64,000 bases of DNA, taken from NCBI GenBank assembly GCA_965222655.1, contig CBDCUP010000010.1, positions 372,848 to 436,847 on the forward strand, read 5' to 3'. This document shows positions 27,575 to 30,164 of the stretch, piece by piece. Source of the DNA: Acidobacteriota bacterium (lineage in GTDB: Bacteria > Acidobacteriota > UBA6911 > RPQK01 > JAJDTT01). A model generated the notes under the pieces. It was not told the origin of the DNA. It saw only the letters and a program-made list of their open reading frames with translations, and searched no databases. How positions within the stretch are numbered: position 1 is the stretch's first letter; the number at the start of each line of letters is the position of its first letter. The position numbers and the translations under genes are program-made.

Positions 27575-27993
27575 TCCGGGGGTACACCTATGAGTGTCCC
27601 GACGTGCTGCTGACACTGGTGAGAAACCCCCATCTGCTCGACTACCTGTTTCCTCAACCACCCGAACGACCGGTCTGGCCATCGGCTACTGCGCTAGAGA
27701 CCCCTTGGTCGAGAAAAAATTCACAAACTGATCAAGTTTCCTGCCTCTGTGTGATGTAGTTTCCAAAGAGACCGCTTCAGCGGTCTGGCGCGAAGCGTAT
27801 TAGACCCGGCCTTCAGGCCGGGGTCAGCTGCGGGCCATCCCTCCGGAGGGCCTTTCAAGGTCCTTCTCGAACCGCGGCTTTAGCCATCTTCGACCCGGAA
27901 CCTGGCTGAAGCCTGTATTCGAGAAGCCCGCTAAAGCGGGCTCCGGCATCTGCTTGCTCGCCCACCCGGCCCTGAACGCCGGGTCTAATACGC

Positions 27994-29871
27994 GCGTGCC
28001 GGGCACGCGCGCTGTCTGGGAGGGTGCAAGTCCCTCCGCCAACCTGATGGAGGTGAAGGCTAGCGAAGCACAAGGGCGTCACCGCGAGGTGGGGTCTGAA
28101 GGAAGTGTGGAGCAAACGTACGAGCCGACGCACAGAAACTGGATAAGTAGGCGCCAAGGTCGGACGAGTCAGCGCGTGGTGACGAAGTCCATATCCATCA
28201 AGATCCGGAAGCGTAAATCCAGCGGTTGTGTACGGAAAGACAGCGTCCTTACCCCGGGAGGCCTGGGAGGCTGTCCCTTGAAGGACAGGTGGAATCGTAA
28301 GGTTTCATAGCGCCCTCCAGGAGTCCGCAGAGGGCATAGTAGGTGGGGAAACTCACGGAAGGCCCGAACGGTAGGGAGAGGTTAGTAGGTGTCCAATCTT
28401 AAGGGTGATCAACAGAGGCAGAGAAGTCCGAAGCGGACCTCAAACCGAACAGCTGGGGTGCGGCCCCAGGGAAGCGGGGAGACGGCGGATTCATCCTTAG
28501 CGAAAGGGCGAACCGAAGGCCCGATGTTTGGTGAGAACGTCATGGAGGAGATATGCGAGCGAAGTAATCTGGAAGCGGCGTTGAGACGAGTGCGAGCGAA
28601 CCGAGGGGGTCCGGGAGTGGACGGGATGACCGTCGATGAACTGCCGGAGTACCTGAAGGCGAACTGGCGGTCGATCAAAGAACAGCTGCTGTGCGGGGAG
28701 TATCAACCGCGACCTGTCAAGGGGGTGGAGATTCCGAAACCGGGAAGGAAAGACAAGCGAAGACTCGGGATTCCGTGTGTGATCGATCGATTTATCGAGC
28801 AAGCGATGCTGCAAGTGCTGCAACGCAAGTGGGATCGCACGTTCTCAGAGTCCAGCTATGGCTATCGACCGGGGCGCAGGGCTCATCAGGCAGTGGCGCG
28901 TGCCCAAGACTACGTGAAAGCGGGCTACGGGACCGTGGTCGATCTCGATTTAGAAAAGTTTTTCGATCGAGTTCACCACGATCGTTTGCTGAGCCGGCTG
29001 GCGCGGGAGATTGGGGACAAGCGGGTACTGAAGTTGATCCGAGCGTATCTAAGCGCGGGGATTCTGCGGTACGGACTGGTGAGTGCGCCGACGGAAGGGA
29101 CGCCGCAAGGCAGCCCCCTGTCCCCCTTTCTCTCGAACGTGGTTCTGGATGAGCTGGACGAGGAACTGGAGCGCCGGGGTCCCCGTTTTGTCCGCTATGC
29201 CGATGACTGCAACATTTATGTGCGGAGTCGGCGGGCGGGGGAGCGAGTGATGGCGAGTGTGAGCCGGTTTGTGAGCCAGCGACTGAAACTGCGTGTCAAT
29301 CGGGAGAAGAGTGCGGTGGATGAGCCCCAGAAGCGGAAGTTCTTAGGCTTCACGTTCACGGGAGGCCGATCGCCCAACCGGCGCAAGATTGCGCCGGAAT
29401 CGATCCAGCGGTTTCGATCCCGGGTGCGTCGTTTAACGCGGCGTAACCGGGGGATCAGCCTGGAGCAGCGTGTGGACGAATTGTCCCGCTACCTCCGGGG
29501 CTGGATTGGATACTTTGGGTACGTCGAGAGCCCCTGGGTCCTGCGGGGTCTGGACAGCTGGATTCGTCGTCGCCTGCGCAGCGTCCAATGGAAACAGTGG
29601 AAGGTCTACCGGCGACGCCAGGCGGAGTTGATCCGGCTGGGCGTGAGTCGGGATATGGCCCAGCGGACCGCGTGGAGCGTCAAGGGCCCTTGGGCCCTCA
29701 GTCAAGCGCCCGGGGTCCGGATAGCGCTTCCGAATGCTTATTTCGATCGGTTAGGTCTTCCTCGGTTGGCTAATCATCAGCGCATTCAACCCTAGCGAAC
29801 CGCCTTGGTACGGACCCGTATGCCTGGTGGTGTGGGAGGGGAAGGCCCGTGAGGGCTTCCCCTATCCCGAG
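27994..29871 (+). mobile_element. Group II intron, class C (IIC)-like, 1878 nt
   Basis: DI motifs gggtgcaagtccc and gcgaggtggggtctgaaggaag; DV gaacCGCcttggtacggacccgtatgcctggtggtgt; DVI with bulged A at 29864; boundaries fixed by exon reconstitution. Confidence 0.92.
28389..29795 (+). CDS. ltrA: Group II intron reverse transcriptase/maturase (no endonuclease domain)
   Basis: GGPGVDG, RRLGIPCVIDR, SYGYRPGR, DLDLEKFFD, GTPQGSPLSP, RYADD; C-terminal maturase X domain. Confidence 0.95.
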   Translation: MSNLKGDQQRQRSPKRTSNRTAGVRPQGSGETADSSLAKGRTEGPMFGENVMEEICERSNLEAALRRVRANRGGPGVDGMTVDELPEYLKANWRSIKEQLLCGEYQPRPVKGVEIPKPGRKDKRRLGIPCVIDRFIEQAMLQVLQRKWDRTFSESSYGYRPGRRAHQAVARAQDYVKAGYGTVVDLDLEKFFDRVHHDRLLSRLAREIGDKRVLKLIRAYLSAGILRYGLVSAPTEGTPQGSPLSPFLSNVVLDELDEELERRGPRFVRYADDCNIYVRSRRAGERVMASVSRFVSQRLKLRVNREKSAVDEPQKRKFLGFTFTGGRSPNRRKIAPESIQRFRSRVRRLTRRNRGISLEQRVDELSRYLRGWIGYFGYVESPWVLRGLDSWIRRRLRSVQWKQWKVYRRRQAELIRLGVSRDMAQRTAWSVKGPWALSQAPGVRIALPNAYFDRLGLPRLANHQRIQP

Positions 29872-30164
29872 TTCGCGCCAGACCGCTGAAGCGACCTCCC
29901 TGAACGGGACACATCCACCCAAGGTCAGCGTTCCTCGGCGGTATGAGGTCGGTCGTGAGGCACCAAATCCAAGACTGGCCGCCCTATTCGGGTTTTCAGA
30001 ATCCACTTTCGAAAAGTGGCCCTCCTGATGCCATGCCCCCCAAGGGCAACATCTCGGAGAGCTGGCTTGAGAGGATTCACCTGGATGTATATCGGCCAAA
30101 CCGGAAAAGTGAAATCAAAGTTTGATCGTCCGACAAAGGGAACAGTACGCGGTTATATAGTACG

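Follow-up and report, generated by a model that had tools for sequence, protein, structure and literature searches.

Examination of a 64,000-nt stretch of DNA from an Acidobacteriota bacterium (hereafter the window; contig CBDCUP010000010.1, forward-strand positions 372,848 to 436,847, of the 22-contig, 9.47 Mb assembly GCA_965222655.1) revealed a group II intron lodged in one arm of an inverted repeat downstream of fliS. Comparison with the remainder of the genome and with other genomes of the genus leads us to propose, at a probability of roughly 0.87 and on sequence grounds, that this is an active bacterial class C group II (IIC) intron, lacking an endonuclease (En) domain, whose retrohoming is directed at a single position of an interspersed repeat confined to the genus, here termed family X. 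The proposal is built on the set of intron copies and the exact position they have in common, on the repeat being older than the intron and independent of it, on covariation between exon-binding site 1 (EBS1) and intron-binding site 1 (IBS1), and on the tie between occupancy and integrity of the site. Positions without further label are those of the window, with G000 being the genome of the window, G001, G004 and G005 sister genomes, and C numbers contigs.

Twenty-seven full-length copies of the intron, spread over 10 contigs, are present in the genome, with 18 being identical and 9 carrying one single-nucleotide polymorphism (~99.95% identity), and the spread to so many near-identical copies is, as judged by their sequences, recent. 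Besides these, the genome contains a 675-nt relative without open reading frame (ORF) (C21:666264-666938, 87-90% identity) and one small fragment. As many as 26 of the 27 copies interrupt the identical base of one motif, acccggccctgaaggaccggtctaWtacgc|ttcgcgccagNccgctgaagcgg (the bar marking the junction), which measures some 60 nt and comprises hairpin B, a 9-nt linker (CTANTACGC|TTCGCGCC spans the junction), a further 8-9 nt and hairpin C. A profile search with this 60-nt motif on the genome after removal of the introns returned 79 sites, 26 filled and 53 empty, arranged as 27 inverted doublets of one constant mutual orientation and 25 singletons. The doublets span 250-340 bp, with their junctions 200 bp apart in 22 cases and ~287 bp apart in 5, and the filled arm is the left one in 7 doublets and the right one in 9. 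Within the 64-nt target cores of the occupied sites pairwise identity averages 80% (64-98%), the flanks falling into several subfamilies, and BLAST identity among copies ends exactly at the intron boundaries. With 26 copies at one base of the repeat, the landing pad is a multicopy repeat and not a set of transcription terminators. An earlier note on this DNA, drawn up from the window alone, had placed the insertion 9 nt past a hairpin (the intervening linker reading ctaatacgc in the window copy) and had suggested that a multicopy family supplies a genome-wide set of homing sites; both statements are borne out by the census, one third of the 79 sites being filled, the repeat being far from single-copy, in this genome as in five sister genomes, and the other intron copies lying at the identical repeat position instead of behind unrelated terminators.

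The only copy outside family X (C18:802557-804434; locus L011, 3058-4935, minus strand) forms a twintron, inserted ~60 nt into domain I (D1) of a multicopy group II intron-like element of ~940 nt (Rfam group-II-D1D4-4), uninterrupted copies of which include C3:1012067-1013010 and C22:1716159-1717055. Its 5' context consists of gtgggtgaaagtcccac and 11 nt ending in CCGC|U, placing the end of the hairpin 11 nt upstream of the junction versus 9 nt at the 26 repeat sites.

Assignment of the insertion to class IIC follows from several features. On the plus strand it matches the Rfam models group-II-D1D4-3 (118 bits) and D1D4-1 (45 bits), the D5-D6 model giving no match to the intron. Its last 83 nt fold into a domain V (D5; AACCGCC..., with a CGC triad) and a domain VI (D6) whose bulged A lies 8 nt short of the end; we take both domains to resemble their counterparts in the O. 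iheyensis IIC intron. Pfam finds RVT_1 and GIIM only in the intron ORF, without an En domain, and the length of ~420 aa is as in class C. Among solved structures the reverse transcriptase (RT) is best matched by that of GsI-IIC (PDB 6ar1, E = 4e-142, 477 bits), followed by the E. rectale IIC RT at 342 bits, while LtrA (IIA) and a IIB RT score only ~104 bits; it is these structure-relative scores, and not a formal phylogeny with reference classes, that place the protein in class C. The ends are atypical, all 27 copies starting with GCGUG and ending in GAG, except for one copy with GAT, where the IIC consensus is GUGYG...AY; these consensus ends are a feature of the class and do not define it. 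Since the ends are the same in all 27 copies and empty sites such as the left arm of the window doublet are at hand, the boundaries leave no room for a shift. The window copy carries a private A>C change at 29182 (intron nt 1189), by which Pro replaces His six residues ahead of the YADD active site, in RRG(H>P)RFVRYADD, with A at the equivalent position in the other 26 copies and in all public contigs aligned to the window; the window copy may be reliant on RT from sibling copies.

The repeat itself does not depend on the intron. Each of the five further genomes of the genus contains 10-88 matches to the empty-site pattern GGTCTANTACGCTTCGCGC; one of the five, with 46 such sites, shows no intron match, and the 11 genomes of other genera that were searched yielded none of the pattern. 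That every one of the six congeneric genomes has empty sites, even the one without intron, establishes by genome comparison that family X is older than the intron and independent of it. Its two hairpins, of 21 nt (B) and 18 nt (C), are supported by 5 of 15 pairs that change on both sides, in 52 cells, with compensatory changes at 3 of the 8 pairs of hairpin B (45 distinct copies), and paired cells amount to 91.6%, with shuffles reaching 81.7% and slid-partner controls no more than 39%. When folded as single-stranded DNA (ssDNA), the site is predicted to form hairpins B and C, which leave the junction in the intervening linker (z-scores of -2.3 to -4.1). The invariant junction CGC|TTCGCG could instead pair with CGCTGAAGCG of hairpin C (27991-28000 with 29872-29893 in the window, and in some other copies); predictions for ssDNA give this alternative in the case of the window copy and of one consensus variant, and it would bury the insertion site in a stem.

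To what kind of repeat family X belongs is less clear-cut. The label attached to it in the earlier note, that of a repetitive extragenic palindrome (REP) or of a REP doublet forming a hairpin (REPIN), is matched by covarying hairpins in inverted doublets and by lineage specificity, and fails on the link to a REP-associated tyrosine transposase (RAYT), on doublet size and on the modest copy number. The doublets of 250-340 bp are much larger than typical REPINs, and the 79 copies lie below the more than 100 copies typical of REPs, their genome-wide gene context having been checked crudely. Not one of the 19 Y1_Tnp matches in the genome has the family X motif on both flanks. The nine distinct Y1 loci were also scanned for pieces of this motif, and of that of a second repeat family, Y (see below), within 1.5 kb, and no RAYT gene proved to be consistently associated with the doublets. 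A single-copy RAYT-like gene (C18:392763-393503; locus L013, 3264-4007) matches NF047646 at 74.5 bits, the cutoff being 80; it adjoins a truncated 287-type element, is separated by ~380 bp from an occupied site and has no repeat on its other side. As two-sided flanking was not seen, and as the five repeat-carrying sister genomes all lack this gene, a RAYT link of family X was rejected. Features of a MITE (miniature inverted-repeat transposable element) are likewise partial: the arms are 57-nt inverted repeats, and neither an ordinary direct target duplication nor a parent insertion sequence (IS) was identified. Two short paralogues (C11:67792-67932 and C20:35207-35367) share the outer ends of the composite repeat, with one hairpin, aggccgctgaagcgacct, in place of the doublet of ~250 bp; a single hairpin C where full elements have C', core (~235 bp) and C marks the doublet core as a separable unit, which to judge from these paralogues looks as if it had entered a simpler REP hairpin or expanded out of one. 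In sister genomes G004 and G001 the sequence downstream of fliS diverges straight after the gene and the whole repeat is absent, giving no clean empty allele of the locus. The discreteness of the core versus the short paralogues, combined with the absence of the repeat from these orthologous loci, suggests that the repeat is or was mobile. Family X is thus a REPIN- or MITE-like repeat, for which strict REPIN status is not established and the term REP/REPIN refers to architecture only. Of the earlier view that the intron parasitizes REPINs at neutral homing sites, what stands is the supply of homing sites by a repeat family (26/27 copies), and what does not is the strict REPIN identity. The genome as a whole is very repeat-rich, with an element of ~1118 bp, presumably an IS, in more than 40 copies at 99-100% identity, and one of ~137 bp in more than 150 copies at 75-97% identity (BLAST of C18:799957-802556).

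How the intron finds its site can be read in part from base pairing. An 8-nt loop in D1 holds GCGUG, complementary over 5 bp to UACGC, the final five exon bases, and its position agrees with what we take to be that of EBS1 in the O. iheyensis intron. The pairing GCGUG/UACGC of the main intron is replaced by GAAUG/UAUUC and CCGAG/UUCGG in variants from G004, and by GCCUG/ACGGC in the G001 copies and the ORF-less relic of G000. The EBS1/IBS1 interaction, which the earlier note had left to be mapped, is thereby located and covaries over four intron variants of the sister genomes. No EBS2 was found, nor was a search aimed at one made. The G004 and G001 variants and the G000 relic all lie after hairpins of family Y, laid out as GTAG-c-tttggcctccaggccgaag ... 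cgagcctttggctcg ... ggcctagagaccaccgCTAC (for instance in the 5' flank of C21:666938) and counting ~200 copies of the end hairpins and 62 of the inner hairpin, which on sequence looks like a classical GTAG-tagged REP doublet. ORF-less derivatives of ~400-675 nt, 83-94% identical, follow family Y hairpins at C21:666264-666938, in G004 (L029-L031, L034 and L037) and in G005 (L032). Contigs of low depth that skip ~1255 nt of the ORF are found in two public runs (X4 and X5).

The targets of more distant relatives put this pairing in perspective. Related introns outside the genus (60-65% RT identity, mostly from metagenome-assembled genomes of Acidobacteriota) start with GUGUG, end in GAU and follow classical terminators, a hairpin plus T run, each copy in one genome after a different one. 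At the target site in the window no terminator-like site is predicted, and the hairpin has no T run after it. Set against each other, the terminator targets of the relatives and the repeat targets described here indicate that the lineage traded a U-tract-matching EBS1 for GC-rich ones that match the linkers of repeats.

In the mechanism that we favor, the ribonucleoprotein (RNP) would recognize the DNA stem-loop, hairpin B, ending 9 nt upstream, like other IIC introns do, with the exact phosphodiester being set by the 5-bp EBS1-IBS1 pairing (GCGUG with UACGC) plus a U at +1. The intron RNA would then reverse-splice into the linker between hairpins B and C, presumably in single-stranded form, followed by DNA copying, probably from replication-fork primers, as an En domain is absent. 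With EBS1 being GC-rich and not U-tract-matching, the combination of a hairpin with UACGC|U would be abundant only in this repeat and not in terminators, and insertions at these sites may well be neutral.

Occupancy follows the integrity of the site. Of 64 sites that combine ACGC|U with a stable hairpin, 26 are filled, and of 15 defective ones none (Fisher p = 0.0016), the latter being made up of 7 with an extra G at +1 and 8 with a broken or truncated hairpin. The extra-G arms (acgc-g-ttcgcg; for example C3:223140, C18:137366 and C19:94948, in intron-excised coordinates), unoccupied in all seven cases, may be naturally resistant alleles, since their intron-binding site 3 (IBS3) is changed and the spacing shifted. 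Occupancy within doublets is exclusive: in the 19 doublets with both arms intact, one arm is filled in 13 and both arms in none, where 3.06 would be expected (P = 0.015). Possible causes of this single filling are instability or lethality of two inverted 1.9-kb copies 200 bp apart, and strand-specific targeting at the fork. In DNA-like public runs the depth of the intron is ~27-45x that of unique flank. Four metatranscriptomes contain the whole intron in RNA contigs, at a depth of 47-247 versus 0-4.4 for unique flank, figures that cannot show splicing. The orientation of the copies relative to neighboring genes was considered as well and dropped, 16 of 27 copies having the same sense as the upstream gene (by a crude ORF plus GC3 heuristic), which is no bias.

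Several observations weigh against retrohoming into family X as formulated here, or against parts of it. The threshold that defines an intact site was set after the data had been seen, and the seven extra-G sites, all in one arm subfamily, are probably related by descent and so do not count as independent. No convincing EBS3 could be assigned: the only perfect covariation with IBS3, at intron nt 247 (28240; A when the 3' exon starts with U and C when it starts with G, a Watson-Crick match in both cases), sits in the basal stem of D1, where the opposite nt 22 (28015) changes from U to A in the same variants and leaves an A-C mismatch. The strand bias expected for En-less introns is weak. Raw GC skew puts 21 of 27 introns on the G-rich strand; with the introns excised the count becomes 18 versus 8 (p = 0.08), with 11 versus 5 in singly filled doublets and 12 versus 3 where skew is strong, and a replication-strand bias, being a weak trend only after excision, was set aside. 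Public contigs (Logan), which break at repeats, show depth only, with no locus-specific empty or spliced junction among them. Finally, a hairpin of comparable stability ends 8-12 nt upstream of 624 other ACGC|T sites in the genome, all of them unoccupied, compared to 26 of 62 filled in the repeat. Either hairpin plus IBS1 is insufficient and the repeat provides further determinants, or selection removes genic insertions, two causes that are not separable here; selection against genic insertions must account for part of the deficit, and extra determinants in the repeat may account for the rest.

This last count bears directly on the possibility that the intron has no special adaptation to the repeat at all, inserting after any hairpin followed by NCGC|U, with selection purging insertions elsewhere and tolerating those in repeats. 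The exception copy, which uses another hairpin with just a 3-bp IBS1 match, speaks for it, as does the modest need of IIC introns for a stem-loop and 3-4 bp of IBS1 (PMC1702495), and many of the 624 alternative sites are probably coding. The contrast of 26/62 with 0/624 is extreme, however, some of the 624 sites must be intergenic, and all four intron variants, in three species, reside at repeat hairpins with a matched EBS1. We consider this possibility unlikely, though deserving of serious attention; it differs from retrohoming into family X in degree only, namely in whether there are determinants beyond hairpin plus IBS1/IBS3.

Two further scenarios dispense with retrohoming as the route of spread, and both run into the variation close to the junction. 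In one, homologous recombination or ectopic gene conversion would have let occupied repeats convert empty ones. The repeats share 60-400 bp at 64-98% identity around the site, which could in principle support conversion, and direct evidence for reverse splicing is lacking. Yet on either side of the junction occupied sites are found to differ within 5-12 nt, with tctaA/T/Ctacgc and tcgaatacgc upstream, ttcgcgcCag, ttcgcgcAag, ttcgcgAcag and ttcgcgGcag downstream, and three types of hairpin B, so that conversion tracts would need to end at the intron many times. Flanking haplotypes common to occupied sites and lacking in empty ones were not observed, the exception copy occupies a site devoid of repeat homology that does have a hairpin and CGC|U, and the covariation of EBS1 with its target in sister lineages is not something recombination requires. 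Conversion is, in our estimate, very improbable. In the other scenario the intron is passive cargo, acquired once by one repeat copy that then transposed, MITE- or REPIN-like, with the intron inside, for which one may cite the discrete doublet core versus the short paralogues and the lack of the repeat at the orthologous position downstream of fliS in two sister species. The same flank differences argue against it, and so does the discrepancy between introns that are ~99.95% identical and host repeats that are 64-98% identical. Moreover, the hosts span 200-bp doublets, 287-bp doublets, singletons and four outer-end types, the intron is found in either arm, identity ceases at the intron boundaries, and the intron-bearing copies are scattered over old, divergent repeat subfamilies and do not form one young clade. 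Transport as cargo can be regarded as hardly credible.

Retrohoming into family X may be part of something wider, in that the whole IIC lineage of the genus could be a specialized parasite of interspersed hairpin repeats, characterized by near-complete fidelity (26/27), by jumps between modules through 1-4 EBS1 bases (four EBS1/target combinations in three species), by recognition beyond a generic hairpin plus IBS1, and by exclusion from the second arm of a doublet. We offer this as a tentative proposition, more doubtful than probable; if true, it would mean that repeat families and IIC introns co-evolve and that repeat-homing is a fourth natural target class.

The layout of the window locus is given in Table 1. 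The genes upstream of the target are, by Pfam, flaG, fliD and fliS, followed by one more small ORF and then by a repeat-rich intergenic stretch, such that the window copy of family X is itself intergenic. A repeat finder pairs 27795-27824 with 27964-27993 (30 nt, 90% complementarity) and 27768-27794 with 29872-29898 (27 nt, 93% complementarity). The left arm thus repeats the joined right arm in inverted form and without interruption, which fixes the empty site with single-base precision. Once the intron is left out the doublet measures ~253 bp, close to the inverted repeat of ~240 bp after the fliS operon that had been described from the window, and it lies inside a composite repeat of ~400 bp without the intron, or ~27694-29955 with it.

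Table 1. Features of the occupied family X repeat and its intron, in window positions
Feature	Position	Strand	Basis and details
Composite repeat, outer left part ('a-end')	27694..27767		Alignment of 22 doublet loci; the same ends flank the single hairpin in short paralogues
Doublet left arm, empty target site	27768..27824	-	Inverted repeats; nhmmer site C10:400641(-), 67 bits, unoccupied
Parts of left arm	27770-27785; 27794/27795; 27804-27824	-	Hairpin C' (27770-27785); junction between 27794 and 27795; hairpin B' (27804-27824)
Doublet spacer, 139 nt	27825..27963		Holds a further hairpin, gaagcccgctaaagcgggctcc, at 27923-27944
Hairpin B of right arm, acccggccctgaacgccgggt; 5'-exon stem-loop	27964..27984	+	7-8 bp, TGAA loop, usually a bulged C; DNA fold, compensatory changes
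9-nt linker, CTAATACGC	27985..27993	+	IBS1 UACGC at 27989-27993; TACGC invariant in 26/26 occupied sites
Group IIC intron (assigned), 1878 nt, 5' GCGUG...CCCGAG 3'	27994..29871	+	Identical ends in 27 genomic copies; Rfam D1-D4; RT match
D1 stem-loop GUCA[GCGCGUGG]UGAC	28168..28183	+	EBS1 GCGUG at 28174-28178; complementary to UACGC; covariation
Intron-encoded reverse transcriptase/maturase, 423 aa from ATG at 28524	28524..29795	+	RVT_1 and GIIM; YADD at 29196-29207
Domains V and VI	29798..29868	+	RNA fold; CGC catalytic triad in domain V (29798-29831); bulged A in domain VI (29834-29868), 8 nt before the 3' end
3'-exon half of right arm, ttcgcgccagaccgctgaagcg from 29872	29872..29898	+	IBS3 = T (29872), then TCGCGCC, then hairpin C at 29880-29897
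Composite repeat, outer right part ('b-end')	29899..29955		Doublet alignment, short paralogues

Known requirements of class IIC introns are a stem-loop and 3-4 bp of IBS1 along with IBS3, and such introns are found behind terminators "or other inverted repeats" (PMC1702495); a 2015 review distinguishes three target types for bacterial group II introns, these being long homing sites, terminators and attC sites (PMC4424553). A full-text literature search returned no description of an IIC intron homing systematically into an interspersed repeat family. The mechanism proposed here is the known IIC recognition of hairpin plus IBS1; what is new is the class of target, the fidelity and the retargeting of EBS1 across species. 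An interspersed hairpin repeat, entered with almost complete fidelity and with one third of its sites filled, would stand as a fourth target type beside the three of that review (PMC4424553). The system provides a natural data set on how an IIC RNP reads DNA, with 26 filled, 38 intact empty and 15 defective sites in one genome and four EBS1 variants in the sisters, and it shows a route by which a retroelement can rise to high copy number without hitting genes. That few base changes in EBS1 retarget the intron between repeat modules is of relevance to hairpin-guided gene-targeting tools derived from compact IIC introns and their thermostable RTs.

With B.h.I1 (Bacillus halodurans), O.i.I1 and GsI-IIC (Geobacillus stearothermophilus) the present intron, whose RT is closest to that of GsI-IIC, has in common the absence of an En domain and a compact ribozyme with a CGC-triad D5. 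GsI-IIC reportedly proliferates to high copy number, as is seen here. Terminator-homing IIC introns in general are alike in having a stem-loop few nt upstream and a short IBS1 and IBS3 (PMC1702495, PMC4424553), whereas here the target hairpin is without T run, 26 of 27 copies lie in one repeated sequence and not at many terminators, EBS1 is GC-rich and pairs over 5 bp, and the 5' end reads GCGUG instead of GUGYG. The IIC-attC introns (S.ma.I2 and relatives) come close in another respect, their target being a repeated, imperfect and bulged stem-loop of another genetic element (PMC4424553), and hairpin B usually has a bulged C too; in contrast, the target of the present intron is an interspersed chromosomal element confined to one genus. 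No integron or attC context was noticed in the material examined, in which no search for an integrase or attC sites was made.

In Pseudomonas putida KT2440, 2 of 9 group II intron copies were found to be REP-associated, with several IS families reaching 100% (Tobes and Pareja 2006, PMC1525189). That association is weak (22%) and tabulated without a mechanism, compared to an association of 96%, a fixed nucleotide, a mapped EBS1-IBS1 pairing and cross-species retargeting in the present case. The KT2440 intron, and with it ISPpu9, ISPpu10 and IS1397, shares with the intron described here the use of REP-type palindromes as landing sites. The En-less intron RmInt1 of Sinorhizobium meliloti homes into the multicopy mobile element ISRm2011-2, which offers many safe targets, and being IIB-like (class D) it reads a long sequence in a coding IS through EBS1, EBS2 and EBS3. 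RmInt1 and the present intron are thus alike as En-less introns that target a multicopy element, with the difference that the latter is of class IIC, depends on a hairpin and 5 bp, and enters a non-coding repeat.

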